From Desulfovibrio sp. (GTDB lineage Bacteria > Bacillota > Dethiobacteria > DTU022): 64,000 nt of DNA. This document shows, piece by piece, positions 13,720 through 59,250 of this stretch (its first letter is position 1; each line of letters begins with the position of its first letter). Under the pieces are notes generated by a model. That model was not told where the DNA came from. It was given only the letters and a program-made list of their open reading frames with translations, and did no database searches. A program made the translations under genes and the position numbers. The DNA is taken from assembly GCA_020060545.1 (NCBI GenBank), contig JAGUZX010000131.1:856-64855 (forward strand), given 5' to 3'.

Positions 13720-13753
13720 GGGTGAAGCAAAACTAAACTTACCGGATTTACGC

Positions 13754-13787
13754 AGGAGAGCCCCCAAAAGGGGCTCTCCTTATTTGG
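13754..13787 (+). terminator. Intrinsic terminator
   Basis: AGGAGAGCCCC-aaaa-GGGGCTCTCCT followed by TATTTGGTTTT. Confidence 0.75.
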
Positions 13788-13885
13788 TTTTCCCGGAGTG
13801 GGCGGTTATGCTCGCGCTATGGCCCCGGGCGGTTTAGCGGTGCCGATAGAAAAAAAGGATCGTCACTGATTGGCCCGGTAACAGA

Positions 13886-14787: not shown

Positions 14788-14863
14788 GTCCGAACCTGCT
14801 CTCGCTACATATTTACAATATTTTACACCATAGAGGTTATTTATGCAAGCCTTAAATCCCGAA

Positions 14864-14893
14864 AAGCAGGAATGTAGAAAGCAGGAATGTAGA
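14864..14893. repeat. Perfect 15-bp tandem direct repeat (AAGCAGGAATGTAGA x2) upstream of the TA pair
   Basis: Read directly from the sequence. It lies about 80 nt upstream of the antitoxin start on the minus strand, so it is a candidate operator. Confidence 0.7.
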
Positions 14894-15007
14894 TGGCAAA
14901 TATTGAATCCAAAAATAGAAAAGGTTTTGCATAGGAAAAGCGCACGGACAGCTAAACGGTCGCGATTCATTTTAATCATGCATCATTCAATGCTGTTGGA
15001 GGTAATG

Positions 15008-15193
15008 ATGTATTTAAACCTCTATGCGTTACCGCTTTTTGCAGTCACAGTCATCATGCTGCTGATGGCATACCGGGCCTGGCGCTTTCGCTTTGCACCG
15101 GCCGCAAAGGCATTTATTCTGCTGGTCGTGTGCAATGTTGTTTATGCCCTCTTTTATGCTTTGGAGATCTCGTCGCTTTCCCTGGATTGGTAA
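15008..15193 (+). pseudogene. N-terminal fragment of a 7TM-type sensor protein
   Basis: MYLNLYALPLFAVTVIMLLMAYRAWRFRFAPAAKAFILLVVCNVVYALFYALEISS resembles the first two helices of the histidine-kinase N-terminal 7TM domain. A stop follows after about 61 aa. Confidence 0.3.
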
Positions 15194-15264
15194 ATTGTGT
15201 TTGCAGGGCGGTCATGAAAAAAGCGGGTCAACCCCGCGCCAAGTTTTGAGGGGAGGGTGGGACT

Positions 15265-16128: not shown

Positions 16129-17369
16129 AGCGACCGGTATCCAGCGGCGCGGTTTTAGGCGCGATTTTGAAAAAAGATTTGCGGCTCTACAGCCGGAACA
16201 AGATCTACCTGTTCCTGACTGTGCTGAGCCTTGTATTTTTTGTGCTGATCTTCTGGATCATGCCCGATACGGTCGACGAGACGATCGTGCTTGCAGTTTC
16301 GCCGCCCATCCGGACGATGATCGGCGAAGCCAGGGAGGCGCTGCGCAAGCTCGGCGTCCCCGAGGCGCAGCTTGAACAGCTGGATCAGTTGGACTTTTCA
16401 CGAGAGGCGGAGGGGCTGCAGCTGGTGGAGCTGGAGAGCGAGGCGGAGCTCAGGCGCGTTATTGAAGGCGGGCTCGAGGTTTACCGCACCGCGGACGGCG
16501 GCCTGGTCCTGCGCGACCCGGATACCGGCGAAAAGAAGCCCGGGGAAGCCCGGCGGGTGAAGCCCGGCATCGGCATCGCCTTCCCCAAGCTTTTCATTGC
16601 GGACGCCGCCAGGGGGGCCAGGACCACGGTCACGGTCTATGCGGACGCGGCGGTGCCGGAAGAGATCCGGGGCGCGATGCAGAGCTTTGTGCGCGAGATC
16701 GCCTACCAGCTCGCCGGGCGCGGGCTGCCGGTCGAGCTGCCGGCCGAGGAGGCGATTATCCTGGGACGGGATCGCGCGGGCGATCAGGCATCTCTGCGGG
16801 ACAAACTGCGGCCGATGCTGGCGTTTTTCGTCCTGCTCATTGAGACGTTCGCCATGGCCTCGCTTATCTCGACCGAAATACTGCAGCGCACCGTGACCGC
16901 GCTCATGGTTACGCCGATGCGGATCTGGCATTTCCTTGCCGCCAAGACGGTTTTCGGCACCGGCCTGGCGCTGGGCCAGGGGTTGCTGGTCCTGGCGCTG
17001 GTCGGGGCGTTTACCCCCGCCAACTGGCCGCTCCTTCTCGTAACGATGCTGATCGGGTCGATCATGTTCACCGGTGTGGCTATGCTTATCGGCGCCGCCG
17101 GGAAAGACTTCGTCAGCCAGCTCATGTACGCCCTTTTATTTACCGTGCCACTGATGATTCCCACGTTCGCGGTGCTTTTCCCCGGCACCGCCGCCGCGTG
17201 GATCCGGGCCATCCCCAGCTACCCTGTGATCGACCTGCTCGTGGGCGTCACGATCTACGATGCCGGGTGGGCGGAGTCCCTGGGCGCCCTCGCCTGCGCG
17301 CTGCTGTGGGTGGCTATTCTCTCCGCGGCGGGCCTGTTTATTCTGAAGCGGAAGGTGGAGTCGCTATGA
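16125..17369 (+). CDS. ABC-2 family permease with a large extracytoplasmic loop
   Basis: Start overlaps the ATPase stop. One TM helix, an about 200-aa loop, then 5 C-terminal TM helices. Confidence 0.7.
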   Translation: MKRPVSSGAVLGAILKKDLRLYSRNKIYLFLTVLSLVFFVLIFWIMPDTVDETIVLAVSPPIRTMIGEAREALRKLGVPEAQLEQLDQLDFSREAEGLQLVELESEAELRRVIEGGLEVYRTADGGLVLRDPDTGEKKPGEARRVKPGIGIAFPKLFIADAARGARTTVTVYADAAVPEEIRGAMQSFVREIAYQLAGRGLPVELPAEEAIILGRDRAGDQASLRDKLRPMLAFFVLLIETFAMASLISTEILQRTVTALMVTPMRIWHFLAAKTVFGTGLALGQGLLVLALVGAFTPANWPLLLVTMLIGSIMFTGVAMLIGAAGKDFVSQLMYALLFTVPLMIPTFAVLFPGTAAAWIRAIPSYPVIDLLVGVTIYDAGWAESLGALACALLWVAILSAAGLFILKRKVESL

Positions 17370-18415
17370 GCCTGCAGCGTGTCTGGAGCCTGTTCCGCAA
17401 GGATTTTGCGCTGGGGCCGCGCAAGCCCTTTTTCCTCTTCGCGGTGGTTATGCCCGTGGCGCTGACGCTGATCTTCCAGGTGGCTTTCGGCTCGCTCTTC
17501 GAGCCCAAGCCCCGCCTGGGGATTGTCGACGAGGGCGGCTCCGAGATTACCGCGGCCGTCCGGCGGATGGAAGGGGTTACACTCGCGCTGCTTGACGATA
17601 CCGGGGAGCTGAAGCGGCGGGTTCAAAATAACGACCTCGATGCCGGCCTGGTCCTGCCGCCCGGCTTCGATGCGGCGGTGCGCGCGGGACAGCGGCCGAA
17701 GCTCGAATTTTATATCGGCGGCGAGAGCCTGGCCTCAAACCGCATCATTTTAAGCGTTACGGCCATCGACCTGATCCGCGGTGTCGCGGGGCTCGAGGCC
17801 CCCGTCACCGTCGAAACGGTGCGCTTCGGGGAGGCGGGGCTGCCCGTTGCCATCCGCCTGGTTCCTTTAATCGTTTTCTATGCCCTTGTCCTGGCCGGAG
17901 TCTGGATTACCGGTTCGAGCCTCGTCGAGGAGAAGGAGAAAAGCACCCTCGCGGCGCTGCTGGTCACCCCCGCCAGGCTGAACGAGGTCTACGCCTCCAA
18001 GTGGCTGCTCGGGTTCGTTTTTGCTTCATTCATGGCGGCGGCCACGCTTTTCTTAAACCGCGCCTTCGGCCCGCGCCCGCTCGATGTCCTCGCGGTGATC
18101 CTGGTGGCGGCCGCTCTCAACGCCATGCTCGGCCTGCTCGTGGGCGTGCTCTCGAAGAGCTCGACGACCCTGTTTACGCTGATCAAGGGGGCCGGCATTT
18201 TCCTGTTTGCGCCGGTGATCTTTTACCTCTTTCCGGACTGGCCGCAGTGGATCGCGCGCATCTTCCCGCTCTACTGGATTATCGAGCCGATCTGGCAGGT
18301 GTCGGTAATGGGCGAGCCTCTCGCCAGGGTCTGGTTTGAGCTCGCTGTCGCCGTCGCGATTACGGCGGCCCTGGTCCCGGCGATCATGCTTGTGGAGCGC
18401 CGCATGAAGGCGTAG
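17366..18415 (+). CDS. ABC-2 family permease (second subunit)
   Basis: ATGA overlap with the previous stop. MSLQRVWSLFRKDFALGPRKPFFLF..., same topology as the preceding permease. The track's upstream extension is rejected. Confidence 0.7.
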   Translation: MSLQRVWSLFRKDFALGPRKPFFLFAVVMPVALTLIFQVAFGSLFEPKPRLGIVDEGGSEITAAVRRMEGVTLALLDDTGELKRRVQNNDLDAGLVLPPGFDAAVRAGQRPKLEFYIGGESLASNRIILSVTAIDLIRGVAGLEAPVTVETVRFGEAGLPVAIRLVPLIVFYALVLAGVWITGSSLVEEKEKSTLAALLVTPARLNEVYASKWLLGFVFASFMAAATLFLNRAFGPRPLDVLAVILVAAALNAMLGLLVGVLSKSSTTLFTLIKGAGIFLFAPVIFYLFPDWPQWIARIFPLYWIIEPIWQVSVMGEPLARVWFELAVAVAITAALVPAIMLVERRMKA

Positions 18416-32756: not shown

Positions 32757-34226
32757 TTGATGTTTAAACGCAAGTTGAAGCCGGTGCGCTCGGTCCTGGA
32801 ATGCAAGGTTTTAAGCGAGCGGGACATCGTGAAGATCCACCAGGCCGCCCTGGAGGTGATGGAGGAAGCGGGCGTAAGGTTCCCGTCGGAGCGGGCACTG
32901 AACGTGCTGGAAGAGGCGGGATGCCCGGTGGATCGCCAAACCATGGTCGCCAAGCTGCCTTCCGGCCTGGTGATGGATTGCCTGCGCCGGGCCCCCTCCC
33001 AGTACCTGCTGGCCGGGCGGGATCCCAAAGATGATCTCTGGATCGACGATAAAACTTCCTATCTCTCCACCGACGGCTGCGCGGTTGATTTTTACGATAT
33101 CCGCACCGGCGAACTGCGCCGCTCCACCAAGCAGGATATCACCGACGCCTGCCGGGTGGCCGACTACCTGCCGGAGATTTCGTATATCTGGGGTCCTCCC
33201 GTCAGCGCGCAGGACGTCCCGGCGGCGGTGCGACCGCTGCACGAGATCGAGGCGAGCATGGATGGGACCACGATGCATATCCAGCCGGAGACGGTTATTT
33301 CCAGGACAATCGCCCGTTTTGCCCTGGAGATGGCCGCCGCGGTGGCCGGCGGCAAAGAGGCGCTGCGCAAGCGGCCGCTCTTTTCGTACATGCAGTGCGC
33401 CACCGATCCGCTCGGGCAGGACGGGGGGAGCCTGGAGGCGTCAATGGTGGCGGCGGAGTGGGGGATCCCCACCGGTTTCATGCCGATGCCGATGTCCTGC
33501 GCCACCGCTCCGGCCACTTTGGCCGGCAACCTGGTGGTGACGACGGTCGACGCGGTCAGCCCCCTGGTACTGATGCAGCTGGTTAACCCGGGCGCGCCGG
33601 TCTATTTCGCCGCGGCGCCCACGGCAATCGACCTGCAGACCGGCGGCTATACCGGCGGCGGGCCGGAAGACTTCCTCCTGGCGGCCGCCTTTAGCCAGAT
33701 CTGCCGCTTCTACCAGATCCCCCTGGCCATGGGCGCTTTCGCCACCGGGTCCAAGGAACCGGACTGGCAGGCGGCGGTGGATAACTGTTTTTCCGGCCTG
33801 TTGCCGGTCCTCACCCGGACCGCCATCCTCAACGGGGCGGGGACCTTGAACGGCTCCAAGATCTTCTCCCTGCAGGCTTTGATCATGGACGCCGAGATTT
33901 ACAGCATCATCGCGCGGGTTGCCGAAGGGATCGAGGTCAGCGACGAGACGCTGGCCGTGGAGCTGATCAAAAAAATCGGCCCTGGCGGCAACTTCCTCGC
34001 CGAGAAGCACACCCGGCAGCACATGAAAGAGATCTGGCGCCCCGTTGTTTACGACCGCAAGCCCTACGGGGCCTGGCTGGAGAGCGGCAAGCGAGGCGCT
34101 TTCGAAGAAGCCACTGAAAAAGCGCGCTGGATCCTGGAGAACCACGCGGTGCAGCCGCTCGAACCCGGGATCAAGCAAGAATTTTCCAGGATAATCAAGG
34201 CCGCTGAAAAAGAGCTGGCCGGTTAA
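32757..34226 (+). CDS. MttB-superfamily (trimethylamine methyltransferase family, COG5598) methyltransferase, non-pyrrolysine type; substrate unknown
   Basis: An uninterrupted 489-aa ORF of MttB length and architecture (..VLSERDIVKIHQAALEVMEEAGVRF.., C-terminal ..GPGGNFLAEKHTRQHM..). There is no in-frame TAG. A corrinoid protein gene follows 15 nt downstream. Confidence 0.8.
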   Translation: MMFKRKLKPVRSVLECKVLSERDIVKIHQAALEVMEEAGVRFPSERALNVLEEAGCPVDRQTMVAKLPSGLVMDCLRRAPSQYLLAGRDPKDDLWIDDKTSYLSTDGCAVDFYDIRTGELRRSTKQDITDACRVADYLPEISYIWGPPVSAQDVPAAVRPLHEIEASMDGTTMHIQPETVISRTIARFALEMAAAVAGGKEALRKRPLFSYMQCATDPLGQDGGSLEASMVAAEWGIPTGFMPMPMSCATAPATLAGNLVVTTVDAVSPLVLMQLVNPGAPVYFAAAPTAIDLQTGGYTGGGPEDFLLAAAFSQICRFYQIPLAMGAFATGSKEPDWQAAVDNCFSGLLPVLTRTAILNGAGTLNGSKIFSLQALIMDAEIYSIIARVAEGIEVSDETLAVELIKKIGPGGNFLAEKHTRQHMKEIWRPVVYDRKPYGAWLESGKRGAFEEATEKARWILENHAVQPLEPGIKQEFSRIIKAAEKELAG

Positions 34227-34241: not shown

Positions 34242-34892
34242 ATGGAACAGGCGCAACTTTTTGCCAGGATGAAGTCAGCCGTACTGGAGGGGGAGATCGG
34301 CCTGGCCGCGGATCTGGCCCTTAACGCGCTGGAAATGGGCTTAAGCCCGCTCACCTGCATCGAGGAAGGCTACGTCCCCGGGATCAACGAGGTCGGCCGC
34401 CTCTTCGAAGCGGGCGAAATGTTTCTTCCCGAGCTGGTGGCGGCGGCCGAAGTGATGAAGGCGGCCCTCGCCGTCCTGGAGCCGGAGCTGCTGCGCCGGC
34501 AGGTATCGCGCGCGACCATGGGCAAGGTGGTGATCGGGACCATGTTCAACGATATCCACGATATCGGCAAGGATATGGTCGCCTCCATGCTTACCGCTTC
34601 GGGGTTCGACGTGGTCAACCTGGGGGTGAACGTACCCTGCGCCGCCTTCATCGACAAGGTCAGGGAGCTGCAGCCGGAGATCCTGGGGCTCTCGGCCTTG
34701 CTGACCACAACCATGCCCGAGCAAAAGACGGTCATCGAGGCGCTGCAGCGGGAAGGGCTGCGCGGGACGGTCAAAGTAATCGTCGGCGGGGCCCCGGTCA
34801 ACCGGCAGTGGGCCGACTCGATCGGCGCCGACGGCTTCGCCGAAAACGCCATCGAAGCGGTAAAGGTGGCCAAACGGCTGGTCGGCAAGTAA
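34242..34892 (+). CDS. Corrinoid (B12-binding) protein, MtbC/MttC/MtgC-like
   Basis: N-terminal helical cap (EEGYVPGINEVGRLFEAGEMFLPELV). B12-binding DxHxxG motif in GTMFNDIHDIGKDMV, then LSALLTTTM. Confidence 0.9.
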   Translation: MEQAQLFARMKSAVLEGEIGLAADLALNALEMGLSPLTCIEEGYVPGINEVGRLFEAGEMFLPELVAAAEVMKAALAVLEPELLRRQVSRATMGKVVIGTMFNDIHDIGKDMVASMLTASGFDVVNLGVNVPCAAFIDKVRELQPEILGLSALLTTTMPEQKTVIEALQREGLRGTVKVIVGGAPVNRQWADSIGADGFAENAIEAVKVAKRLVGK

Positions 34893-35122: not shown

Positions 35123-36604
35123 ATGGAGAAGTTCAGCTTCAAGGGCCAGCCGCGCCTGCGGCTCTTGTCCGACGAGCAGATCGAGCTGATGCACGAAAAA
35201 GCGCTCTATATCCTCGAGAACACCGGGGTCAAGTTCGAATCCGAGGAAGCGCTGAAAATTTTGAAAGATCACGGCGCGCAGGTTGACTTTACGCAAAAGA
35301 TCGCCCGGATCAAGCCGGAAATGGTGATCGACGCCGTGCAAAAGGCGCCCTCCGCCTTACGGCTGTACAACCGGGACGGGGAGCCCGCCGCTGATTTAAG
35401 CGGCAACAACGTCCACTTTGATCCCGGTTCGGCCGCGATCAAGTTCATGGAATCGGACGGCGTGACCGTCCGCCAGTCCAGGGCGGAAGACCTGGCCCGG
35501 ATCTCCAAAGTAAACGACGCCCTGGACAATATCGCCCTCCAGTCCACGGCTGTCGTGGCCTACGACGTGCCCAAGCTAATCGGCGACAGCTACCGGCTTT
35601 ACATTTTACTGAAGCACTCTCCCAAGGCGATCATCACTGGCGCCTTCAGCGTGCACGGCGTCGCCCACATGAGGGAGATGCTGGCCGCCGTGGCGGGGGG
35701 GTACGAGCGGCTGAGGGAGAAACCGGTGGCCGTTTTTGACATCTGCCCCTCCCCGCCGCTAAAATGGACGCACATCAGCGCGCAGAATATTATCGACTGC
35801 GCCCGTTTCGGCCTGCCCCTGGAGACGGTCTCCATGCCGATGCCCGGCGCCGCATCGCCGGTGACCCTTTCCGGGTCGATCCTGATCCATACCGCGGAGA
35901 CGCTGAGCGGCATCGTTCTGGCCCAATGTGTCAGCCCGGGCGCCCCGGTGGTGTACGGCGGGGCGCCGGTTCATTTTGACATGCGCTTCGGCACCACCCC
36001 TTTAAGCGCGATCGAGGCGACGATGATCGCTGCGGCCTACGCCCAGATGGGTAAATTTTACGGGATGCCCACCCACACCTACGCGGGCTTGAGCGACGCC
36101 AAGGTGGTCGACGCCCAGGCCGGCCTGGAAACGGGGATGAGCGGCGTCGTGGCCCAGCTGGCCGGGATTAACGTGATCTCTGGCGCCGGGGCCCTGGATT
36201 TCGTGAGCTGCATCAGCTTGGAGAAGCTGGTTATCGACAACGAGATCTGCGGGATGGCGCTGCGTCTGCACCGGGAAATCGACTGCTCGGCGGAAGCGAT
36301 GGCGGTTGAACTGGTGCGCGACCTCGGGCCGGGCGGGGACTACCTCGGCACGGAGCACACTTTCCGGTGGTTCAAGAAGGAGCCGTATATCACCTCCCCG
36401 GTAATCGACCGCCGCGATCGCGGCGGCTGGGTGGAGCAGGGCAGCAAGGATGCCTTTGCCCGCGCCAGGGAGAGAGTCTGTGAAATTGAGGGCGGCCACA
36501 GCCCCGTCCCTCTGGACGGGGAGCGGGCCGCCGCGCTGGACCGGGCCGCCTCACGTGTCATGGACGAACTGGGCATCGCCGCCCTCCCCCTCGGCCCCCG
36601 CTAG
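35123..36604 (+). CDS. MttB-superfamily methyltransferase, second diverged paralog, non-pyrrolysine; substrate unknown
   Basis: Uninterrupted 493-aa ORF (..LLSDEQIELMHEKALYILENTGVKF.., ..GPGGDYLGTEHTFRWF..). GGGAGGG acts as RBS. Confidence 0.8.
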   Translation: MEKFSFKGQPRLRLLSDEQIELMHEKALYILENTGVKFESEEALKILKDHGAQVDFTQKIARIKPEMVIDAVQKAPSALRLYNRDGEPAADLSGNNVHFDPGSAAIKFMESDGVTVRQSRAEDLARISKVNDALDNIALQSTAVVAYDVPKLIGDSYRLYILLKHSPKAIITGAFSVHGVAHMREMLAAVAGGYERLREKPVAVFDICPSPPLKWTHISAQNIIDCARFGLPLETVSMPMPGAASPVTLSGSILIHTAETLSGIVLAQCVSPGAPVVYGGAPVHFDMRFGTTPLSAIEATMIAAAYAQMGKFYGMPTHTYAGLSDAKVVDAQAGLETGMSGVVAQLAGINVISGAGALDFVSCISLEKLVIDNEICGMALRLHREIDCSAEAMAVELVRDLGPGGDYLGTEHTFRWFKKEPYITSPVIDRRDRGGWVEQGSKDAFARARERVCEIEGGHSPVPLDGERAAALDRAASRVMDELGIAALPLGPR

Positions 36605-36936: not shown

Positions 36937-37569
36937 ATGGCCAATTTGGAAACCCTTAAAAAAGGGGTTATCGAGGGAGACGTGCAGCTGGTAATGGAAG
37001 AGACCAGGTCCTGCCTGGACAGCGGGATGGACGGCCTGGCAATTATCAACGAAGGCCTGGTGGCGGGGATGAACGTGGTCGGGCCGCGTTTTAAGGCCGG
37101 GGAGATGTTTGTCCCGGAGGTGCTGATGTCGGCGAAAGCGATGGCCGCGGGGGTAGAGCTGGTCAAATCCGTCCTCGTGGACACCGAGATACCGACCGCC
37201 GGAAAGGTGCTGATCGGCACGGTCAAAGGAGACCTGCACGATATCGGCAAGAACCTGGTCTCGATCATGCTGGAGAGCAGCGGGTTTGAGGTGGTGAACA
37301 TGGGCGTGGACATCCCCCCGGAGCAGTTTGCCGCGGCGATTCGGGAGCACAAGCCCCAGATCGTCGGCCTGTCGGCCCTCCTCACGACGACCATGCTGGC
37401 GATGAAGGATACGATCGACTACCTCCGGGCGGAAGGCCTGCGCGACTCGATCAAGGTGGTCATCGGCGGCGCGCCGGTGACGGCCGACTTCGCCAAAGAG
37501 ATCGGCGCCGACGGCTACGCCCCCGACGCCGGCGCCGCCGTCGAGCTGGCCCAAGGCCTCCTCGGTTAG
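36937..37569 (+). CDS. Corrinoid (B12-binding) protein, second copy
   Basis: The ATG at 36937 follows AAAGGAGG. MANLETLKKGVIEGD..., cap GMNVVGPRFKAGEMFVPEVL, DxHxxG in GTVKGDLHDIGKNLV, then LSALLTTTM. The track's 108-aa N-terminal extension is Arg/Gly-rich and is rejected. Confidence 0.9.
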   Translation: MANLETLKKGVIEGDVQLVMEETRSCLDSGMDGLAIINEGLVAGMNVVGPRFKAGEMFVPEVLMSAKAMAAGVELVKSVLVDTEIPTAGKVLIGTVKGDLHDIGKNLVSIMLESSGFEVVNMGVDIPPEQFAAAIREHKPQIVGLSALLTTTMLAMKDTIDYLRAEGLRDSIKVVIGGAPVTADFAKEIGADGYAPDAGAAVELAQGLLG

Positions 37570-47871: not shown

Positions 47872-49290
47872 ATGCTGGCCGGTGTCAATTGGGATTCCCT
47901 GCTTGTTTTTGCCTTCCTCAGCCTTTTCCTGGTCGTGGCCACGTTGCTGCGCAGCCGCATTTCGATTCTGCAAAGGTTTTTAATTCCGAACAGTATCCTG
48001 GCCGGGGTGCTGGGGATTATTTTCGGCCAGTACGTGTTCAAGGTGATCGATCCCAACCGGATGGGCGATTATGTCTACCACCTGTTAACCCTGGCTTTTA
48101 TCGCCATGGGGCTGCGCGGCTCCAGGGTCAAGCGCAGCTACGGGACCGTCACCACCATGGTTGTCCACTGCAAGGGCTACGCCATGCAGGGGCTGCTGGG
48201 GATGATCTTCACCCTGGTTGTTATCCTCACCTATATGCCGCGCCTTTTTCCCGCCTTCGGGCTGCACCTGGTGATGGGATACGGCAACAACCCGGGCGTG
48301 GCTTACAGCTTCGGGCAGGCCTGGGAGGCGATGGGCTTTACCGGGGGAGCCCAGGTCGGCCTGACTTTCGGCGCCCTCGGCTTTGTTTGGGCTTATATTG
48401 TCGGCATCATGATTATTAACTGGGGAGTGCGCCGCAACAAGACCGCCCTCTTTAAAGGTTACCACGAGCTGCCGGCCTCGGTTTTTAAAGGGGTCGTCGG
48501 CAGGGACGAGCCGAAAAAGGAGGCGGGGAAGCTGGTCACCTCCGCCGAGGCCGTGGAATCGCTGGCGCTGCAGCTGGCCATCGTCGGCACGGTCTTTCTG
48601 GCGGCATACTATTTTCTCCGGGCCGTAATCGGCGGCCTGGATAACCTCGGCGAAACCGGCCACGACCTGGCCAAGCTGATCGGGGGGTTCGGCTTTATCT
48701 TCGGGATCCTCTTTGCCCTGCTGCTCCGCTGGATTATGGAGCTGCTGCGGATCGACCACGTGATCGATCAGGGCCTGATGTCCCGCTTGGGCGGCACTTT
48801 TGTCGATTACATGATCGCCGCCTCCGTCGCCGCCATCTCCTTGAGCATGATCCGCGCTTACTGGCTGGAGATCGCCGTTCTTTCCACCCTGGGAGGGCTG
48901 GCCACCCTGGCCCTGGTTCTGTTCCTGGTGAAAAGGATGCACCGGGACTTCCACTTTGAGCGGGCGCTCTCCTCTTTCGGCCTGCTGACGGGGACGGTGG
49001 CTTCCGGGTTGGCCCTGCTGCGGGTGGTCGATCCCCACTTTGAAACCCCGGTGGCCGAAGACCTGGTTTACGCCGGCGGGCTGGCTTTGTTTACCGGCAT
49101 TCCCATATTACTGCTGGCCAATATGCCCGCCGCGGCTTACCTGGGCGGGGAGTCGCTCCCGGGGCTGATCAAAACCATTATCCTGGTGGCGGCTTATGTC
49201 GTGGTTCTCTTTATCGGCTGGAAGATCTACCAGGTCCTTTTCCTGCGCCGCCTGAAGCGCGCCGGCGAGGCCGGCGCCGTTTCCAAATAG
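47872..49290 (+). CDS. Sodium/glutamate symporter family (GltS/ESS-like) transporter
   Basis: AAAAGGAGG acts as RBS. The N-terminus LLRSRISILQRFLIPNSILAGVLG parallels E. coli GltS ..FLKKYTIPEPVAGGLL. 472 aa, polytopic. Confidence 0.55.
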   Translation: MLAGVNWDSLLVFAFLSLFLVVATLLRSRISILQRFLIPNSILAGVLGIIFGQYVFKVIDPNRMGDYVYHLLTLAFIAMGLRGSRVKRSYGTVTTMVVHCKGYAMQGLLGMIFTLVVILTYMPRLFPAFGLHLVMGYGNNPGVAYSFGQAWEAMGFTGGAQVGLTFGALGFVWAYIVGIMIINWGVRRNKTALFKGYHELPASVFKGVVGRDEPKKEAGKLVTSAEAVESLALQLAIVGTVFLAAYYFLRAVIGGLDNLGETGHDLAKLIGGFGFIFGILFALLLRWIMELLRIDHVIDQGLMSRLGGTFVDYMIAASVAAISLSMIRAYWLEIAVLSTLGGLATLALVLFLVKRMHRDFHFERALSSFGLLTGTVASGLALLRVVDPHFETPVAEDLVYAGGLALFTGIPILLLANMPAAAYLGGESLPGLIKTIILVAAYVVVLFIGWKIYQVLFLRRLKRAGEAGAVSK

Positions 49291-50683: not shown

Positions 50684-50712
50684 TTGACAGACCCGTAAAG
50701 CTGAGCTAAGAT
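50684..50712 (+). promoter_or_regulatory. Sigma-A-type promoter of the hut operon
   Basis: TTGACA-17 nt-TAAGAT, 112 nt upstream of the hutH start. Confidence 0.6.
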
Positions 50713-50767: not shown

Positions 50768-50801
50768 AGCACATGGGGATCCCCCGCGTGCTTTTTATTT
50801 T
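50768..50801 (+). terminator. Leader terminator (attenuator) upstream of hutH
   Basis: AGCAC-at-GGGGA/TCCCC-gc-GTGCT hairpin followed by TTTTTATTTT. It lies between the promoter and the hutH RBS (GGGAGGG). Confidence 0.65.
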
Positions 50802-50824: not shown

Positions 50825-52378
50825 ATGGGTGGATCCATTCACTTGAGCCCCGTTTCCGGCCCGGTGGAAATTGACGGCGGCGGCATGACCATTGAAGAGG
50901 TGGTGCAGGTCGCCCGCCGCGCCAGGGAGGTAACGCTGTCGCCCTCTTCGATCGAGCGGATCGCCGCCTCCCGGGCCATGCTGGAAAAGCTGGTCCGGGA
51001 AGAAAGGGTTGTCTACGGCATCACCACCGGTTTCGGCCGGTTCAGCGACGTGGTCATCTCCAAAGAAGACGCCGCCCGGCTGCAGAAGAATCTGATCGCC
51101 AGCCACGCCGCGGCGGTCGGGGAGCCGCTGCCCGCAGAGGTTGTACGCGGGGCGCTTCTGCTGCGGGCGGTCGCCCTCGCCGGGGGGTATTCGGGTGTCC
51201 GGCCGCTGGTCGTCGAGCAGCTGGTGGCCCTCTTAAATAAGGGGGTCGTGCCGCTCGTACCCTGCCAGGGCTCCCTGGGGGCCAGCGGAGACCTGGCCCC
51301 GCTGGCCCACCTGGCGCTCGTGCTCACCGGCCAGGGGGAGGCGTTTTTCCGGGGGCGCCGGATAAGCGGGGCGGCCGTCCTGGCCGAGGCGGGGATGGAA
51401 CCGGTCACGCTGATGGAAAAAGAGGGGCTGGCGCTGATTAACGGCACCCAGATCATGACCTCGCTCGCCGCCCTGGCGGTCTTTGATGCGGGGAACATCG
51501 TCAAAGCGGCGCAGATTACCGCCGCGTTAACCCTGGAGGCACTCATGGCTGTGCCTGACGCATTCGATCCGCTGCTTGCACGGGTCCGCCCGCACCGGGG
51601 CCAGGCGCGCACGGCGCGGAACATCGTCCGCCTGGTCGAAGGAAGCGCCCTGATCGGCGCGGACCGCCGCAAAGTGCAGGATGCCTACAGTTTGCGCTGC
51701 ATCCCTCAGGTCCACGGGGCTACCGCCGACGCACTTGATTATGTGCGCGGCGTAATCGAGGTAGAGATTAACTCCGTCACCGACAACCCGCTCCTGTTTG
51801 TCGAAGAAGGGCGCGTCTTATCCGGAGGCAATTTCCACGGCCAGCCGGTAGCCCAGGCCATGGATTTCCTGGCTATCGCCGTCGCCGAGCTCGGCAGTAT
51901 CGCCGAGCGGCGCGTGGAAAGAGCGGTTAACCCGTCCCTCAGCGGATTGCCCCCTTTTTTGATCCATGAGGGAGGGCTCAATTCGGGTTTCATGATCGCC
52001 CAGTACACCGCCGCTTCCCTAGCCTCCGAAAACAAGGTCCTTTGCCACCCGGCCGGCGTCGACTCGATCCCCTCCTCGGCCAACCAGGAAGACCATGTCA
52101 GCATGGGCGCCACCGCCGCGCGCAAAGCGCGCCAGGTTGTGGAAAATGTAAGCCGGATTTTGGGGATCGAGTTGTTAACTGCGGCCCAGGCGGTCGATTT
52201 TCGGAACCCGCAAAAAATGGGCCGGGGCACGGCTCTGGCGCACAGGCTGCTGCGGGAAGAGGTCCCGTTCATCGCCCGGGATCAACCGCTCTATCCGCTG
52301 ATCAACCGGGCGGTGGAACTGGTCTCCGGCGGGCGGCTGGTAGAAGCGGTAGAAAAGGAAATTCCCCTTGAGCTGTAG
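50825..52378 (+). CDS. hutH: Histidine ammonia-lyase
   Basis: MIO-forming segment GSLGASGDLAPLAH. Family blocks include YGITTGFG, NGTQ and QEDHVSMG. Confidence 0.95.
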   Translation: MGGSIHLSPVSGPVEIDGGGMTIEEVVQVARRAREVTLSPSSIERIAASRAMLEKLVREERVVYGITTGFGRFSDVVISKEDAARLQKNLIASHAAAVGEPLPAEVVRGALLLRAVALAGGYSGVRPLVVEQLVALLNKGVVPLVPCQGSLGASGDLAPLAHLALVLTGQGEAFFRGRRISGAAVLAEAGMEPVTLMEKEGLALINGTQIMTSLAALAVFDAGNIVKAAQITAALTLEALMAVPDAFDPLLARVRPHRGQARTARNIVRLVEGSALIGADRRKVQDAYSLRCIPQVHGATADALDYVRGVIEVEINSVTDNPLLFVEEGRVLSGGNFHGQPVAQAMDFLAIAVAELGSIAERRVERAVNPSLSGLPPFLIHEGGLNSGFMIAQYTAASLASENKVLCHPAGVDSIPSSANQEDHVSMGATAARKARQVVENVSRILGIELLTAAQAVDFRNPQKMGRGTALAHRLLREEVPFIARDQPLYPLINRAVELVSGGRLVEAVEKEIPLEL

Positions 52379-52456: not shown

Positions 52457-52894
52457 GTGGAGCAGATCGGCAGAACGGCGATTATGTTCGCCCTCTCCCA
52501 GGGGACGATGGAAGAGCAGATCAGGCTGGAAGCGGCGGAAAACGGGTTTACCTTGCTTAAGGGGCGGGTCGGGTCGATGAGCAGTGAAAAAATATTTGCC
52601 GCCGTGGAAACGGCCGCGGCGCGGGAAAACCTGATCCGCAAAGAGCTCTACCGGGAAACCCACGCCCTCTATCACGCCGCCCTGGACGCATTTGCCGGTA
52701 TCTGCCGCGGCCAGGTGGGGCTGGGGAGCATGCTGCGCACCGTGGGTTTGATTTTCACCGTAGCCCGGGGGCCGCGCAGCGTTGAACAGCGCGAAGACGG
52801 CGACTGGATCGCCGTGGTCCTCTACGGGACGATCGGCGCCCCGGTGAAGGGGTTCGAGCATGAAACGATCGGCCTGGGGGTCAACCACCTCTAA
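52457..52894 (+). CDS. hutP: HutP, the histidine-responsive RNA-binding antiterminator
   Basis: Aligns along its whole length with B. subtilis HutP as I recall it: GRVGSMSSEKIFAAVETA, YRETHALYHAALDA, LGSMLRTVGL, GDWIAVVLYGTIGAPVKGFEHETIGLGVNHL. Confidence 0.9.
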   Translation: MEQIGRTAIMFALSQGTMEEQIRLEAAENGFTLLKGRVGSMSSEKIFAAVETAAARENLIRKELYRETHALYHAALDAFAGICRGQVGLGSMLRTVGLIFTVARGPRSVEQREDGDWIAVVLYGTIGAPVKGFEHETIGLGVNHL

Positions 52895-53053: not shown

Positions 53054-53067
53054 GGGAGGTGTTTCGC

Positions 53068-54720
53068 ATGGAAAGAGAGATCCGCGCGCCCCGCGGCACC
53101 GCCCTCAGCTGCAAGGGTTGGCCGCAGGAGGCGGCCCTGCGCATGCTGATGAACAACCTTGATCCCGACGTGGCTGAAAACCCGCAGGAGCTGATCGTCT
53201 ACGGCGGAAACGGCAAGGCGGCGCGCAACTGGGACTGTTTTGACGCCCTGGTGAAGACCTTGCGCCGCCTGGAGGGCGACGAAACCCTGCTGGTCCAGTC
53301 GGGAAAGCCGGTGGCCGTATTCAAGTCCCATCCCGACGCGCCCCGGGTGCTGATCGCCAACTCGCTCCTGGTGCCCCGCTGGGCGGACTGGGAGCGCTTC
53401 CGCGCGCTAGAAAGGCTGGGGCTGACCATGTACGGCCAGATGACCGCCGGCAGCTGGATCTACATCGGCACCCAGGGCATCCTGCAGGGCACCTATGAAA
53501 CCTTCGGCGCAGTAGCCCGCCACCATTTCGGGGGCAGCCTGAAAGGGAAACTTGTGCTTACCGCCGGACTCGGCGGCATGGGCGGCGCCCAGCCGCTGGC
53601 GGTGACGATGAACGAGGGCGTGGTGATCGCGGTCGAAGTCGACCCGGCGCGCATCGAGCGGAGGCTCAAGACCGGCTACTGCGACCGCACGGCGCAAAAC
53701 TTGGACGGCGCCCTCGCCATGGCCCGTGAAGCCGCCTGCCGGGGCATACCCCTCTCCATCGCCTTGCCCGGGAACGCCGCCGCGGTGTTCCCGGAAATCG
53801 CCAGCCGGGGGGTAATCCCCGACGTGGTGACCGACCAGACATCGGCCCATGATACATTAAACGGCTATATCCCCGACGGGATCGAGTACGAGGCGGCGCT
53901 GCGCTTGAGAAAGGACGACCCCGCGGAGTACCAGCGCCGCGCGGCGGCATCGATCGCCAGGCATGTCCGGGCCATGGCCGAGATGCAAAAGCAGGGCGCC
54001 GTCGTCTTCGACTACGGCAACAATATCCGCCAAGCCGCCCTGGATGAAGGGTATGCCGACGCTTTCGCTTTTCCCGGGTTTGTGCCCGCCTATATCCGGC
54101 CCCTCTTTTGCGAGGGGAAAGGGCCCTTCCGCTGGGTGGCGCTTTCCGGCGACCCCGCCGATATCGCCCGCACAGATCGGGTAATTCTGGAGCAGTTTTC
54201 GCACGACCCGCACCTGGTCCGCTGGATCAAGACGGTCGGGGAGAAGGTCCGCTTCCAGGGCCTGCCGGCCCGGATTTGCTGGCTCGGTTACGGCGAGCGG
54301 GCCCGTTTCGGGGCGATTATCAACGACCTGGTGGCCGCGGGTGAAATCAAGGCCCCGATCGTGATCGGGCGGGATCATCTGGACTGCGGCTCGGTGGCAT
54401 CGCCCAACCGCGAAACCGAGGCCATGGCCGACGGCAGCGACGCGATCGCCGACTGGCCGATCTTGAACGCCCTGGTCAACACCGCCGGCGGGGCCACCTG
54501 GGTCTCCGTGCACCACGGGGGAGGGGTGGGGATCGGTTATTCCCTGCACGCCGGGATGGTGGTCGTGGCCGACGGAACCCCTGAGGCGGCCCGGAGGCTG
54601 CAGCGGGTCCTGACCACGGATCCGGGTCTCGGGATCGCCCGCCACGCCGACGCCGGTTACGAGGCGGCCCGTCAAAGCGCCCGTGAAAACCGGCTCGATA
54701 TCCCGATGCTGGACAGGTAA
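53068..54720 (+). CDS. hutU: Urocanate hydratase
   Basis: The ATG lies 6 nt after GGGAGGTG. Conserved blocks: [75 protein letters not shown]. Confidence 0.95.
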
Positions 54721-54738
54721 AAGGTTAGGGTCTGGATG

Positions 54739-54841
54739 TCAAGGGAACCGTCCTTTGATATAGATAGAAAATATATATCAAGAGAACCGTCCCCTTGATA
54801 TACGTCCCCTTGATATATATCAAGAGAACCGTCCCCATGAT
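54739..54841. repeat. Hairpin repeat family H, array of 3.5 units in the hutU-methyltransferase spacer
   Basis: TCAAGGGAACCGTCCTTTGA; TATCAAGAGAACCGTCCCCTTGATA; CGTCCCCTTGATAT (half unit); TATCAAGAGAACCGTCCCCATGAT. Confidence 0.8.
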
Positions 54842-54864
54842 CTATTTTGGACAGGAGTGATCAA

Positions 54865-55668
54865 ATGCTGATTGTCGGAGAAAAAATCAACACCAGTCGT
54901 AAAACGGTCAAGGAAGCGGTGGAAAAAAGGGACGCCGCCTTTATCCGGGCTCTGGCCCGCCGCCAGCTGGAAGCGGGCGCGGACTACATCGATGTGAACT
55001 GTGGGACCTTTCTTCAAAATGAACCGGAGCTGCTGAGCTGGCTGGTACGGGAAGTGCAGGATGAACTGGACGGGCGCCCCCTGTGCATCGACAGCCCCAA
55101 CCCCGCCGCCGTGGAGGCCGCCCTGGAGGCGCACCGGGGCACGGCGATGCTGAACTCGATCAGCGGGGAAAAAGAGCGCTACGCGGCGCTGGAACCGCTG
55201 ATCGTGCGCCACGGCTGCAAGGTGGTCGTGCTCTGCATGGACGACGCCTCCGGGATCCCCCCCGATGCGGCCACCCGCTTCCAGATCGCCTCCCGGATCA
55301 TTGAAAGCCTGGTCCAAAAAGGGGTTAAACCCGATGATATCTACGTGGATCCCCTGATCCAGCCGATCAGCGTGGACACGAAAAACGGGCTTTCCGCCGC
55401 CGAGACGATCCGCCTGGTGCGGGAGCGCTACCCCGGTGTCCATGCCATCTGCGGCCTGAGCAACATCTCTTTCGGGCTGCCGGAGCGCAAGCTGTTGAAC
55501 CAGGCTTTTATGGTCGTCTGCGCCGCCTACGGGCTCGATGCCGTAATCCTCGACCCCGAGGACCAAAAGATGATGGCCTTGGTTCATGCCGTCGGAGCGC
55601 TCCTGAACCGTGACCCCTACTGCGGCGCCTACCTCAAGGCTTACCGCAGGGGTAGCCTTACTCCTTAG
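54865..55668 (+). CDS. Pterin-binding (DHPS-like TIM barrel) methyltetrahydrofolate:corrinoid methyltransferase family protein (MtgA/MtvA/AcsE-like)
   Basis: The ATG lies 4 nt after AGGAGTGA. MLIVGEKINTSRK...GADYIDVN...LCIDS...LNSIS...VDPLI...GLSNISFGLPER.LLN are the pterin-binding family blocks. Confidence 0.8.
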   Translation: MLIVGEKINTSRKTVKEAVEKRDAAFIRALARRQLEAGADYIDVNCGTFLQNEPELLSWLVREVQDELDGRPLCIDSPNPAAVEAALEAHRGTAMLNSISGEKERYAALEPLIVRHGCKVVVLCMDDASGIPPDAATRFQIASRIIESLVQKGVKPDDIYVDPLIQPISVDTKNGLSAAETIRLVRERYPGVHAICGLSNISFGLPERKLLNQAFMVVCAAYGLDAVILDPEDQKMMALVHAVGALLNRDPYCGAYLKAYRRGSLTP

Positions 55669-55816
55669 CCGGAAGGCATGTTCCCAGGTTCTTTTAGATT
55701 TAACCGGCGCTGGCAGAGGTTGAGTGAAATGGAGGGGAAATATCCACCCGCAATCCGACTTTTGACCTTTGACCTCTGAACCTAGACCTCTGACTGCCAG
55801 TATGAGAGGTGCTTTC

Positions 55817-56446
55817 ATGCTGAAAGAACAAACGCTCGAACAGTTTGCCGCCGCGGTGAGCTCCGGCAGCCCCACCCCCGGCGGTGGGAGCGTTGCCGCC
55901 CTGGCGGGGGCGCTGGGAGCGTCGCTGCTCGCCATGTACTGCTTCTTAAGCGCCGGCCTGGAAAAATACGGGGCGGCGGCGCTGCTGCTGGAACAGGCCG
56001 GGCTGGAAGCGCGGGCGCTCGCCGCAAGCCTGCTGCTGTCCGTCGACCGGGACGCCGGCGCGTTCGACCGGGTCATGGAAGCCTACCGCTTGCCGAAAGA
56101 GGCCCAAGCGGAAAAAGAGCGGCGCCGGCAAGCGATCCAGGCGGCGCTCGTGGAGGCCGCCCGGGTCCCGCTGCATACCGCCCGGGAGTGCCTGCGCGTG
56201 CTCGAACTGGCCGGTGCCGTTGCCGGGCGGGGGAACCCTTCCGCGGTGACCGACCTGGGTGTGAGCATTCTCCAGGGATGGTGCGGCCTGCAGGGCGCCT
56301 GTTACAACGTTCTGATCAACCTGGCTTCAATTGCGGATGAAAAAATAAGGGCGGAGCTTTCCCGGGAGGCGGCCGAGCTTACCGGCCGGGGCGAGCGGGT
56401 TTTTGCCGAAAACCGGCAGAAGCTTGAGCAAGAGATCAAAAAGTAA
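55817..56446 (+). CDS. Formiminotetrahydrofolate cyclodeaminase / cyclohydrolase family protein
   Basis: FAAAVSSGSPTPGGGSVAALAGALGASL is the signature N-terminus of the FTCD_C cyclodeaminase family. The protein is all-helical, 209 aa. Confidence 0.85.
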   Translation: MLKEQTLEQFAAAVSSGSPTPGGGSVAALAGALGASLLAMYCFLSAGLEKYGAAALLLEQAGLEARALAASLLLSVDRDAGAFDRVMEAYRLPKEAQAEKERRRQAIQAALVEAARVPLHTARECLRVLELAGAVAGRGNPSAVTDLGVSILQGWCGLQGACYNVLINLASIADEKIRAELSREAAELTGRGERVFAENRQKLEQEIKK

Positions 56447-56659
56447 GCGCGCAGCGTGCGGGCGCGCCGCCGGCGGCGACCGCGCGCTTATCCTGCCGCT
56501 GCACCGCCTGCATCGGCGAAAAGGTTATTCACCTGCCGGCGGGCGTTTGTGGAAACGCAAGGCAAACCGGGCCTTTGCCGCTGCCGGTATCTTTTGGCAG
56601 CACTCAGGCCCGGGGGCGAGCGGAATTATTTTCCCCTGGCGGGATCGGAGGGGTGCAGG

Positions 56660-57562
56660 ATGGCTGAAATGATTCAGTGTGTCCCCAATTTTAGCGAAGG
56701 GCGCCGCGGCGAAGTGGTCGAAGCCCTGGCGGACCAGATCAGGGCGGCCGGGGGGGTAAAGCTCCTGGATTATTCTCTCGACTGCGATCACAACCGCTCC
56801 GTTTTTACTTTCGCCGGCGGGCGAGGGGAGGTATTGGAAGCCGCTTTCCGCGCCGCCCGGAAAGCGGCCGAGCTGATCGATCTGCGCCGGCATCGCGGCG
56901 GGCACCCCCGCATGGGGGCGGTGGATGTCATCCCCCTTGTCCCGGTTTCAGGCGTGACCATGGCCGAATGCGCCGCCGCGGCGCGGGAACTGGGCCGGAG
57001 AATCGGTGACGAGCTGGCTATACCGGTTTTTCTCTACGAGGAAGCCGCCTCCGCGCCGGAAAGGCGGAGCTTGGCTGCCCTCCGGGCGGGCGAATTCGAG
57101 GGGCTGCAGGCGGCGATCGACGGGGGCAGGAAACCCGATTTCGGTCCCGCCAGGGTTCACCCCACGGCGGGAGCGGTGGCGGTGGGCGCCAGGAGGCCGC
57201 TGGTGGCGTTTAACGTCAACCTGAACACCGCGGATGTCGCCGTGGCCAAAAAGATCGCCGCGGCGGTGCGGGAAAGCAGCGGCGGGCTGGCCAATGTCAG
57301 GGCCCTGGGCGTCTACCTCGCGGAACAGCAGAAAGCCCAGGTCAGTATGAACCTGGTCAACTGCGACGCCACCCCGCTCCACCGTGTCGCCGAGTTGGTC
57401 CGGGTGGAAGCGGCCCGCTACGGGGTCGCCGTGGCGGAAACCGAAGTGGTGGGGCTGATCCCCCAGCAGTATCTCCTTGACGCCGCCGCCTATTACCTGC
57501 AGTTGAACCGCTTCACCCCTGACCAGGTCCTTGAAAAGCGGATTGCCGGGCAAACATTATAG
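56660..57562 (+). CDS. ftcD: Glutamate formimidoyltransferase
   Basis: The ATG follows GGAGGGG. MAEMIQCVPNFSEGRR..V...... D.DHNRSV.T..G, HPRMGA.DV.P. 300 aa. The track's 68-aa N-terminal extension is rejected. Confidence 0.9.
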   Translation: MAEMIQCVPNFSEGRRGEVVEALADQIRAAGGVKLLDYSLDCDHNRSVFTFAGGRGEVLEAAFRAARKAAELIDLRRHRGGHPRMGAVDVIPLVPVSGVTMAECAAAARELGRRIGDELAIPVFLYEEAASAPERRSLAALRAGEFEGLQAAIDGGRKPDFGPARVHPTAGAVAVGARRPLVAFNVNLNTADVAVAKKIAAAVRESSGGLANVRALGVYLAEQQKAQVSMNLVNCDATPLHRVAELVRVEAARYGVAVAETEVVGLIPQQYLLDAAAYYLQLNRFTPDQVLEKRIAGQTL

Positions 57563-57809: not shown

Positions 57810-59066
57810 GTGATCGAAGCGGATCTTTTCGTGAAAAACGCGTCCCAGCTCTTAACCCTGGCCGGGTCCAGCGAGACGCCCAAAAGGGGCGCCGCCCTGG
57901 CGGAACTGGGTGTCATCCGGGGGGGTGCTGTCGCCGCCCGGGCCGGGGAGATAAAGGCGGTGGGGAGAACGGCTGATTTGGAAAGTGAAATCAGCCTGCT
58001 GACCGGCGGGTGCGCCTACGATGCTTCCGGGAAGGTGGTCATGCCCTGTTTTGTCGAGCCGCACACCCACCTTGTTTTTGCCGGCAGCCGCCAGGACGAA
58101 TTTGTACAGCGCCTGCAGGGTAAAAGCTACCTGAAGATCCTCCAGGCCGGGGGCGGCATTTTGAACACCGTCAGGGCCACCGCCTCCGCCGGCCAGGACG
58201 AGCTGCTTTCCGCCGCGCGCCGCCGCCTGGATCTGTTCGCCCGTCACGGGGTTGGGACAGTGGAAATAAAAAGCGGTTACAGCCTGACGGTAGAAGGCGA
58301 ACTGCGCCTGCTGCGGGTGGTGCAGGAGCTGAGCCGGACTCACCCCCTGGACCTGGTCCCGACTTTCATGGGGGCGCACGCCTTTCCGCCGGTGTACCGT
58401 TCCCGCGAGGACGATTACGTCGATCTGGTAGCGGGGGTGATGATCCCCCGGGTGGCGGAAGAGAAGCTGGCCCGTTTCTGCGATGTTTTCTGCGATGTCG
58501 GGGTATTTACCCGTGAACAGGCCTGGCGCATCCTCACAGCGGGCAAAAACCACGGCCTGCAGCCGAAAATTCACGCCGATGAGCTGGCCTCATTCGGCGG
58601 GGCGGAGCTGGCGGCGGAAGTGAGAGCGGTTTCAGCGGATCATCTCCTGAAAGTATCGGGGGAGGGGATCGGGCGGCTGGCCCGGGCCGGGGTTGTGGCG
58701 GTCCTCCTGCCTGGCACCGCTTTTTTCCTTAACGAAGGTTTCGCCCCGGCCAGGCAAATGATCCGTGAAGGGGTGGCGGTGGCCCTTTCCACCGACTGCA
58801 ACCCGGGCTCCTCTCCGACCGAGGCGATCCACCTGATGCTGACCCTGGCCTGCCTGAAGATGAAGATGCTCCCAGCGGAAACCGTCAGCGCCGCCACGAT
58901 CAACGCCGCGCACGCCGTCGGGATGGCCCACCTGGTTGGGAGCCTGGAAAAAGGCAAACAGGCCGATATCCTTGTTCTGGACGCTCCCGACTATAACTAT
59001 ATCCCCTACCACTACGGCACCAGCCTGGTGGAGGCGGTTTTCAAAAAAGGCCGGCGCATAATTTAG
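57810..59066 (+). CDS. hutI: Imidazolonepropionase
   Basis: GTG after GGAGGAGGG. FVEPHTHLVFAG, KSGYSL, IHADE, SADHL and TDCNPGSSP blocks. Confidence 0.9.
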   Translation: MIEADLFVKNASQLLTLAGSSETPKRGAALAELGVIRGGAVAARAGEIKAVGRTADLESEISLLTGGCAYDASGKVVMPCFVEPHTHLVFAGSRQDEFVQRLQGKSYLKILQAGGGILNTVRATASAGQDELLSAARRRLDLFARHGVGTVEIKSGYSLTVEGELRLLRVVQELSRTHPLDLVPTFMGAHAFPPVYRSREDDYVDLVAGVMIPRVAEEKLARFCDVFCDVGVFTREQAWRILTAGKNHGLQPKIHADELASFGGAELAAEVRAVSADHLLKVSGEGIGRLARAGVVAVLLPGTAFFLNEGFAPARQMIREGVAVALSTDCNPGSSPTEAIHLMLTLACLKMKMLPAETVSAATINAAHAVGMAHLVGSLEKGKQADILVLDAPDYNYIPYHYGTSLVEAVFKKGRRII

Positions 59067-59124: not shown

Positions 59125-59152
59125 GTAGGGGCGCAGCACGCTGCGCCCCTAC
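59125..59152 (+). terminator. GC-rich hairpin after hutI (terminator-like)
   Basis: GTAGGGGCGCAGC-ac-GCTGCGCCCCTAC, a 13-bp stem. A TTTTT run occurs 13 nt further on. Confidence 0.5.
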
Positions 59153-59250
59153 GGGTGGGGGCGACTTTTTACCGGGTTGAGTATTCACGCTGGCGAAGAG
59201 CCTTTCCCTTTTTCCCTTTGTGTCTACAAAAGGAACGTTAAGGACCGTCC

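Follow-up and report, generated by a model that had tools for sequence, protein, structure and literature searches.

The window analysed here is a 64,000-nucleotide stretch of contig JAGUZX010000131.1 in a Bacillota genome assembly (GCA_020060545.1). On its forward strand lies a row of histidine-utilisation (hut) genes in the order hutH-hutP-hutU-MT2-fchA-ftcD-hutI. It was found that the fourth gene, MT2 (54865-55668), probably encodes a stand-alone methyltransferase that passes methyl groups from corrinoid proteins to tetrahydrofolate (THF). By its sequence, the enzyme itself is an ordinary one, a vitamin-B12-linked methyl-to-folate transferase, and what calls for an explanation is its position. 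MT2 most likely serves two MttB/corrinoid protein pairs that are encoded further upstream in the window, and I lean towards seeing its place in the hut row as the leftover of a larger gene island.

The MT2 open reading frame (ORF) encodes 267 amino acids and has no internal stop codon. The start was assigned to the ATG at 54865, with an AGGAG sequence 8 nt upstream, and the orthologues and AcsE likewise open with ML(I/V)xGE. The protein scores 88.1 bits against the Pfam Pterin_bind model PF00809 (cut-off 25.5; residues 9-229) and 340.9 bits against NCBIfam NF005719 (cut-off 259; residues 1-264), a model of methyl-THF:corrinoid/iron-sulfur protein methyltransferases. All five sequence blocks that an earlier note on this DNA had quoted for the family are present (GEKINTSRK, DYIDVN, CIDS, LNSIS and GLSNISFGLPER). 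Among the 22 PDB matches at E <= 1e-10, the best was 4o0q (201.9 bits, E = 1.3e-58, full length), an entry for MT2DH, the methyltransferase II of the O-demethylase of Desulfitobacterium hafniense DCB-2 (4o0q, 4o1e, 4o1f); the AcsE structures 2yci and 2e7f came next. Like MT2, MT2DH is a stand-alone pterin-binding TIM barrel, and the motif GLSNISFG(L/M)P is common to both. AcsE, or MeTr (2e7f, 1f6y, 2yci), has the same fold and length as MT2. Four residues are kept: D76 (CIDS), N97 (LNS), D162 (VDPL) and N200 (LSNIS) of MT2 align with D75, N96, D160 and N199 of MeTr and also with the MT2DH columns. In MeTr, these four are the pterin-binding and N5-activating residues. Many metagenome homologues of MT2 exist at 60-86% identity.

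MT2DH transfers a methyl group from a methyl-corrinoid to THF, and methyl transfer is reversible within the family (PMC7154762). It differs from MT2 in its surroundings: the partner of MT2DH is an aromatic methyl-ether demethylase, whereas the only MT1 genes of the window genome belong to the MttB family, and MT2DH is not known among hut genes. AcsE differs in its physiological direction, which is the opposite one, from methyl-THF to CFeSP. The genome has an AcsE of its own, which is 38% identical to MT2 and sits in the acs cluster; MT2 lies outside that cluster and reaches 145.6 bits with the AcsE model NF040758, below the cut-off of 370. Against the MetH model TIGR02082 it scores 119 bits (cut-off 1011), and its 267 residues correspond to the pterin module alone. 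The role proposed here for MT2, namely to pass the methyl group of a methylated corrinoid protein on to THF after the steps of a non-pyrrolysine MttB protein and an MtgC-type corrinoid protein, is like that of MtgA in D. hafniense and of MtqA in Eubacterium limosum, which presumably groups with MtgA. However, MtgA belongs to a separate sequence family with 13% identity to MT2DH (PMC7154762), and no MtgA entry (DSY3157, PDB 6SJ8) was found among the 22 PDB matches. The earlier note had assigned the gene to an MtgA/MtvA/AcsE type. The assignment to the pterin-binding methyl-THF/corrinoid methyltransferases stands (PF00809, NF005719), but by sequence MT2 is grouped with MT2DH and AcsE and not with the MtgA family of D. 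hafniense. Since the best match is MT2DH and MtgA is of a different sequence family, MT2 would therefore resemble MtgA in function while belonging, by sequence, to the MT2DH/AcsE group.

As the earlier note had described, MT2 lies between hutU and the formimino-THF genes on the same strand with no terminators around it; gene models and a terminator scan bear this out. The row consists of the following features.

50684..50712, + strand: sigma-70-like promoter of the hut row (TTGACA-17-TAAGAT, 10/12 matches)
50774..50796, + strand: candidate HutP attenuator, a hairpin resembling a terminator, with a T-run, immediately ahead of hutH (terminator scan)
50825..52378, + strand: hutH, histidine ammonia-lyase (TIGR01225, 693 bits, cut-off 539)
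52457..52894, + strand: hutP, RNA-binding antiterminator (Pfam HutP, 101.7 bits)
53059..54720, + strand: hutU, urocanate hydratase, short type (TIGR01228, 961 bits, cut-off 375)
54721..54864, + strand: hutU-MT2 spacer with three copies of a repetitive extragenic palindrome (REP)-like hairpin, no U-tract (repeat search, fold)
54865..55668, + strand: MT2, predicted stand-alone methylcorrinoid:THF methyltransferase of the MT2DH/AcsE pterin-binding family, 267 aa (PF00809, NF005719, 4o0q match, aligned residues)
55669..55817, + strand: spacer between MT2 and fchA, neither folding significantly nor containing a terminator-like site (fold z-score 0.32, terminator scan)
55818..56446, + strand: fchA, FTCD_C protein, likely formimino-THF cyclodeaminase (PF04961, 191.6 bits; FchA equivalog, 168 bits, below the cut-off of 275)
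56456..57562, + strand: ftcD, glutamate formimidoyltransferase (TIGR02024, 400 bits, cut-off 221, residues 69-363 of the long ORF)
57810..59066, + strand: hutI, imidazolonepropionase (TIGR01224, 460 bits, cut-off 298)
59144..59173, + strand: intrinsic terminator-like site closing the hut row (8-bp stem, 6 GC pairs, T-run)

The site at 59144, after hutI, is the only strong terminator-like site on the + strand, and neither of the spacers flanking MT2 has one. No + strand sigma-70-like site was found between 54300 and 54865, and no sigma-54 pattern (GG-N10-GC) was found by eye in the hutU-MT2 spacer. The GC content at third codon positions (GC3) is uniform along the row, and neither GC nor GC3 gives a sign of recent foreign insertion. 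MT2 is probably co-transcribed with the hut genes from the HutP-controlled promoter. In Bacillus subtilis, the hut genes form the hutPHUIGM operon, which is subject to HutP antitermination. The row of the window resembles it in having HutP, hutH, hutU and hutI together and a hairpin resembling a terminator ahead of the first enzyme gene, while it differs in that hutP follows hutH, the THF-dependent FtcD and the cyclodeaminase replace HutG, and a corrinoid-linked methyltransferase is inserted. The true start of ftcD is probably near 56660. A second FTCD_C gene of the genome is found on contig C126.

The hutU-MT2 spacer is 145 nt long and consists almost entirely of the three hairpin copies; its fold of -41 kcal/mol (z = -2.5) lacks a tail of the terminator type. 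The hairpins were considered as a dedicated regulatory site, and this was rejected because the element is scattered over the genome: at least 37 copies of its 17-nt core (GAGAACCGTCCCC, with AT-rich arms) are spread over many contigs of the assembly, in both orientations. The spacer hairpin is thus a REP-like repeat rather than a dedicated signal. Members of this family (core TCAAGAGAACCGTCCCC plus an AT-rich inverted repeat) often stand in tandem pairs 29-40 bp apart. The MT2-fchA spacer has five GACCT-like words with a 7-nt period at 55757-55795, which are not kept in the orthologous spacers of the related genomes G017, G022 and G033. The upstream regions of seven MT2 orthologues align poorly; their common elements are the ribosome-binding site and one short GGAGAA-ATA-rich motif, and the window lacks this motif. 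Small ORFs (96 aa) precede MT2 in G015 and G029; they are not conserved in G017 and G033 and are absent in the window.

Which proteins could deliver methyl groups to MT2? Two MttB/corrinoid protein pairs lie 17-22 kb upstream, together with genes for the lysine 2,3-aminomutase KamA and a GNAT protein.

32757..34226, + strand: MttB1, non-pyrrolysine MttB-family MT1, putative partner (PF06253, 293 bits)
34242..34892, + strand: Cor1, MtgC-type corrinoid protein, putative methyl donor (B12-binding and B12-binding_2 domains)
35123..36604, + strand: MttB2, second non-pyrrolysine MttB-family MT1 (PF06253, 307 bits)
36937..37569, + strand: Cor2, second corrinoid protein (long ORF from 36613, domains from near residue 113)

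These two MttB genes and two MtgC-type corrinoid protein genes, all at 32.7-37.6 kb of the window, are the only ones of their kinds in the assembly, which comprises 2.5 Mb in 135 contigs at 95% completeness. The assembly has three PF00809 genes, encoding DHPS (contig C86), MT2, and AcsE (contig C130, beside the MetF, AcsB and CFeSP genes), and no MtrH-type gene. The earlier note had called MT2 the only candidate of its kind in the window; this holds and extends to the whole assembly, in which MT2 is the only such gene other than acsE. By elimination, both MttB pairs most likely share MT2 as their methylcorrinoid:THF methyltransferase. The same economy is seen in relatives: G017 has nine MttB genes and G022 has twelve, and each genome has only DHPS, an MT2 orthologue and AcsE as PF00809 proteins. 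One MT2 would thus serve all MttB systems of the lineage, whether two as here, nine or twelve, and its regulation would therefore gate all corrinoid-dependent demethylation. In the window genome, that regulation appears to be tied to the histidine switch HutP.

The neighbourhoods of MT2 homologues point the same way. When 6 kb around each of 94 distinct homologues was inspected, 63 had a corrinoid protein gene and/or an MttB gene and no hut gene. In G216, the cluster orthologous to 27-37.6 kb of the window (L114, G216:C66, 3500-14600) reads sigma-54 activator, corrinoid protein, MttB2 (64%), MT2, KamA (66%), MttB1 (72%) and corrinoid protein; that is, MT2 stands in the middle of the KamA-MttB1-MttB2 cluster, with no hut genes. 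In G015, where no hut pathway was found, MttB2 (75%) and Cor2 (77%) are followed at a distance of 5.5 kb by an MT2 orthologue of 82% identity. Two MttB genes of G022 (G022:C134:7644-9056 and G022:C150:16649-18061) each have a single in-frame TAG codon and are possibly pyrrolysine-type trimethylamine methyltransferases. A polytopic membrane protein of 472 aa is encoded in the window at 47872-49290 (+ strand); it has no Pfam or NCBIfam match and a 39% paralogue on contig C22, and in both G221 (Natranaerofaba carboxydovora) and G203 a 28% homologue is encoded next to MttB and MT2 genes. It may be a methylated-amine transporter.

Is MT2 common in hut operons? Two samples were used, one of 36 further genomes from the family of the window genome, 22 of which carry ftcD, and one of 401 genomes evenly drawn from the phylum, 143 of which carry ftcD; in the latter, a close MT2 homologue was defined by E <= 1e-84. 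In the family, MT2 adjoins ftcD in four of the 23 genomes with ftcD (the window genome, G017, G022 and G033). In the phylum sample, a close homologue lies beside ftcD in 3/143 genomes, which are the window genome, G433 (the same genome as G061) and G340 (Desulfurispora thermophila), and G152 has an MT2 homologue and ftcD on one contig about 22 kb apart. At none of the 20 closest ftcD loci was MT2 present within 10 kb. Conservation of MT2 in the hut operons of relatives, which the earlier note had put forward for checking, is thus not borne out. G016 has the row hutH-hutP-hutU-fchA-hutI-ftcD and no MT2. The hut genes do not need MT2, and MT2 does not need the hut genes. G016 also differs from the window in how its hut genes compare: hutH, hutP and hutU are 75, 69 and 78% identical, while fchA, hutI and ftcD are 49, 52 and 58% identical and stand in another order. 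This gap in identity and the difference in order mean that the two halves of the operon have different histories.

The position of MT2 is nonetheless not a random one. All seven genomes with an 82% orthologue have DUF2600...MT2-MBL-PrcB-orf598 as a syntenic slot, and fchA-ftcD-hutI directly follow MT2 in four of the seven. In G033 (G033:C117; L154 1-14500, L043 1-13800), the order is PrpD, MttB, hutH, hutP, hutU, MttB, MttB, S15 peptidase, Opp-type ABC transporter, XDH-type molybdoenzyme, MttB, MT2, fchA, ftcD, hutI. This locus holds four of the twelve MttB genes of that genome; hutH, hutP and hutU are 72, 74 and 84% identical to those of the window, and MT2 is 82% identical. The window looks like this island minus 16.5 kb between hutU and MT2. 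G017, with the row hutH-hutP-MT2-fchA-ftcD-hutI and hutU elsewhere, looks like the same island with hutU removed as well.

A different arrangement was found in G340 and G061, which have the order hutP-MT2-hutH-hutI-ftcD-fchA-sigma-54 activator-hutU. Their MT2 sequences fall in a different clade; joining them with the window clade costs 82 log-likelihood units and is rejected by the approximately unbiased (AU) test (p = 0.00018; the tested group was defined after the tree had been seen). On this phylogenetic evidence, MT2 was recruited into hut clusters at least twice. No further hut-linked MT2 was found among the relatives of G340.

Hut genes are also associated with MttB genes in a wider pattern. 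The MttB protein encoded after hutU in G033 shares 60-62% identity with those encoded after hut genes in G340 and G061; between these last two the identity is 79%. The hut-adjacent MttB proteins are 39-47% alike (more among orthologues), in contrast to about 31% identity to MttB1 and MttB2 of the window. A search of the phylum sample with a threshold of E <= 1e-110 gave matches at >= 61% identity in ten genomes. In seven of them (G340, G061, G175, G183, G192, G111 and G260), the distance between this hut-linked MttB orthogroup and hutH or ftcD is 0-16 kb, and the other three are undecidable at contig ends. The window genome has no member of the orthogroup at this threshold. Genes of the orthogroup are usually accompanied by those for a betaine ABC transporter of the OpuAC type, an AOR, a sigma-54 activator, another MttB protein, a corrinoid protein and HutU in a long form, and in four hut-MttB genomes glutamate mutase genes follow the corrinoid protein gene. 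In G192 (Desulfitibacter alkalitolerans), G111 and G260, hutH is placed between two MttB genes: G192 and G111 have the row MttB-hutH-MttB-hutI-ftcD-fchA-hutU, with a 4Fe-4S protein gene after the second MttB in G192, and the short contig of G260 has MttB-hutH-MttB alone. The hutH and hutU genes of G192 and G340 pass the equivalog models.

The hut-MttB association is thus repeated across several Bacillota families, and I found no description of it in the literature; no paper was found that links MttB proteins with hut, hercynine or methylhistidine. The characterised MttB relatives that PMC13080624 and PMC8604678 name accept trimethylamine, glycine betaine, proline betaine, carnitine, gamma-butyrobetaine and phosphocholine. 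Among the active-site residues of MtgB, the hut-linked MttB keeps the equivalent of H348 and does not keep R312, Y97 and F356, so its substrate cannot be read from the sequence. It is a tentative possibility, more doubtful than not, that these clusters represent a real anaerobic system of hut-linked corrinoid methyl transfer. In such a system, the MttB pair, the corrinoid protein and the OpuAC-type importer, in some genomes with MT2, would demethylate histidine betaine (hercynine being the leading candidate) or another N-methylated histidine; the skeleton would enter the Hut pathway, the methyl groups would go to THF, and the MT2 in the hut row of the window would be a remnant. If true, the hut-linked pair would represent a new MttB substrate class and an anaerobic fate for ergothioneine-related compounds. 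D. thermophila and D. alkalitolerans are both cultured, which makes the idea testable.

For the window genome itself, the explanation that I favour, with somewhat more confidence than doubt, is that MT2 is the single methylcorrinoid:THF methyltransferase of both MttB pairs and now stands in the hut operon as the leftover of a hut-MttB-MT2 island. MT2 would take the methyl group from the methyl-Co(III) form of Cor1 or Cor2 and place it on N5 of THF, and the methyl-THF would enter the methyl branch of the Wood-Ljungdahl pathway (MetF, AcsE and ACS on C130, Fhs on C86). An ancestral, larger island would have held the hut genes, several MttB genes and MT2 together, as G033 still does. Loss of the block between hutU and MT2 would have left the REP-filled junction of 145 nt, and MT2 would consequently be read from the HutP-controlled hut promoter, although neither pathway would strictly need the other. 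Since the window genome has no hut-type MttB, the arrangement here is probably a relic.

Several points weigh against this explanation. Co-transcription is deduced from the absence of terminators, and read-through could be weakened by the three REP hairpins. Regulation also seems ill-matched if a HutP-gated promoter drives MT2 and a sigma-54 activator controls the MttB genes. At 95% completeness and 135 contigs, another MT2, MttB or corrinoid protein gene could have been missed. A gain of the 16.5-kb block in the G033 lineage, instead of a loss here, fits equally well, and the hutU-MT2 spacer has no MttB remnant. Furthermore, the second recruitment of MT2 in G340 and G061 hints at a direct functional tie between MT2 and hut.

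It was also considered that the adjacency is a neutral accident of rearrangement, with MT2 on a promoter of its own that was not recognised and with no functional or historical meaning. Within the same family, there are hut genes without MT2 (G016) and MT2 without hut genes (G015 and G001), the junction is full of mobile REP-like hairpins, and a GC-rich hairpin with a T-rich tail lies between MT2 and fchA in G022 and G033. About 0.5 chance adjacencies would be expected by a rough estimate (about 200 MT2 genes in the sample, an 8-kb target and a 3-Mb genome). However, three genera (g1, g18 and g23) share the arrangement, which arose again in two other families with a different order, and the link between hut and MttB is systematic elsewhere. 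In addition, the region upstream of MT2 has neither a sigma-70-like site nor the motif common to several orthologues. An accident of this kind is unlikely.

The earlier note had speculated that methylated histidine derivatives, N-methylhistidines or hercynine, are demethylated here by a corrinoid system. MttB1 and/or MttB2 would pass the methyl groups through MT2 to THF, and the product would go to the co-expressed Hut pathway. The repeated recruitment of MT2 into hut clusters, the four MttB genes at the hut-MT2 locus of G033, and the distinct MttB orthogroup near hut in seven genomes, usually with an OpuAC-type transporter and a corrinoid protein, are consistent with such a route. For this genome it is nevertheless improbable, because the hut-type MttB is missing. 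MttB1 and MttB2, at about 31% identity to that type, belong to a separate unit with KamA and GNAT, and the orthologous cluster of G216 stands without hut. No betaine-type transporter adjoins the hut operon of the window, and G015 retains MttB2, Cor2 and MT2 without a hut pathway. Thus, the speculation is not demonstrable in the window genome, while the comparative support in relatives (G033 and the hut-MttB clusters) makes it plausible for the wider group. The note's simpler suggestion, that the C1 units of both pathways converge on THF, is true but leaves the placement unexplained because most hut operons have no MT2.

Least probable is transfer in the direction of AcsE or MetH. Histidine-derived methenyl-THF would be reduced to methyl-THF, and MT2 would unload the methyl group onto a corrinoid protein; this would release THF for use by FtcD and supply the synthesis of acetyl-CoA or methionine. 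In its favour, the THF-dependent trio MT2-fchA-ftcD keeps its order in four genomes, MetF, AcsE, ACS and Fhs give a reductive route from methenyl-THF, and the family reaction is reversible (PMC7154762), but the genome has a dedicated AcsE in the acs cluster (MT2 gives 146 bits against the AcsE cut-off of 370), MT2 is nearest to MT2DH, which runs from methyl-cobalamin to THF, Fhs already regenerates THF with a gain of ATP, no homocysteine module of methionine synthase was seen near MT2, and 139/143 ftcD genomes have no close MT2 homologue on the ftcD contig, with 0/20 among the closest ftcD loci within 10 kb.

A few minor observations concern the hut-MttB superclusters, which were found at L150 (G340) 742-10905, L161 (G192) 6432-17081, L163, L164+L131, L162, L168 and L080. 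Their long HutU was considered as a thiourocanate hydratase, and this was rejected since it passes the hutU model only. At L148 (G152:C32) 15714-17754, a paralogue of glutamate formimidoyltransferase directly precedes an MttB-family gene; G152 has three ftcD copies. An AOR-family gene lies beside hut and MT2/MttB genes in five genomes, at L040 3189-4928 (G017), L150 4441-6411 (G340), L080 11442-13340 (G061), L163 and L164.

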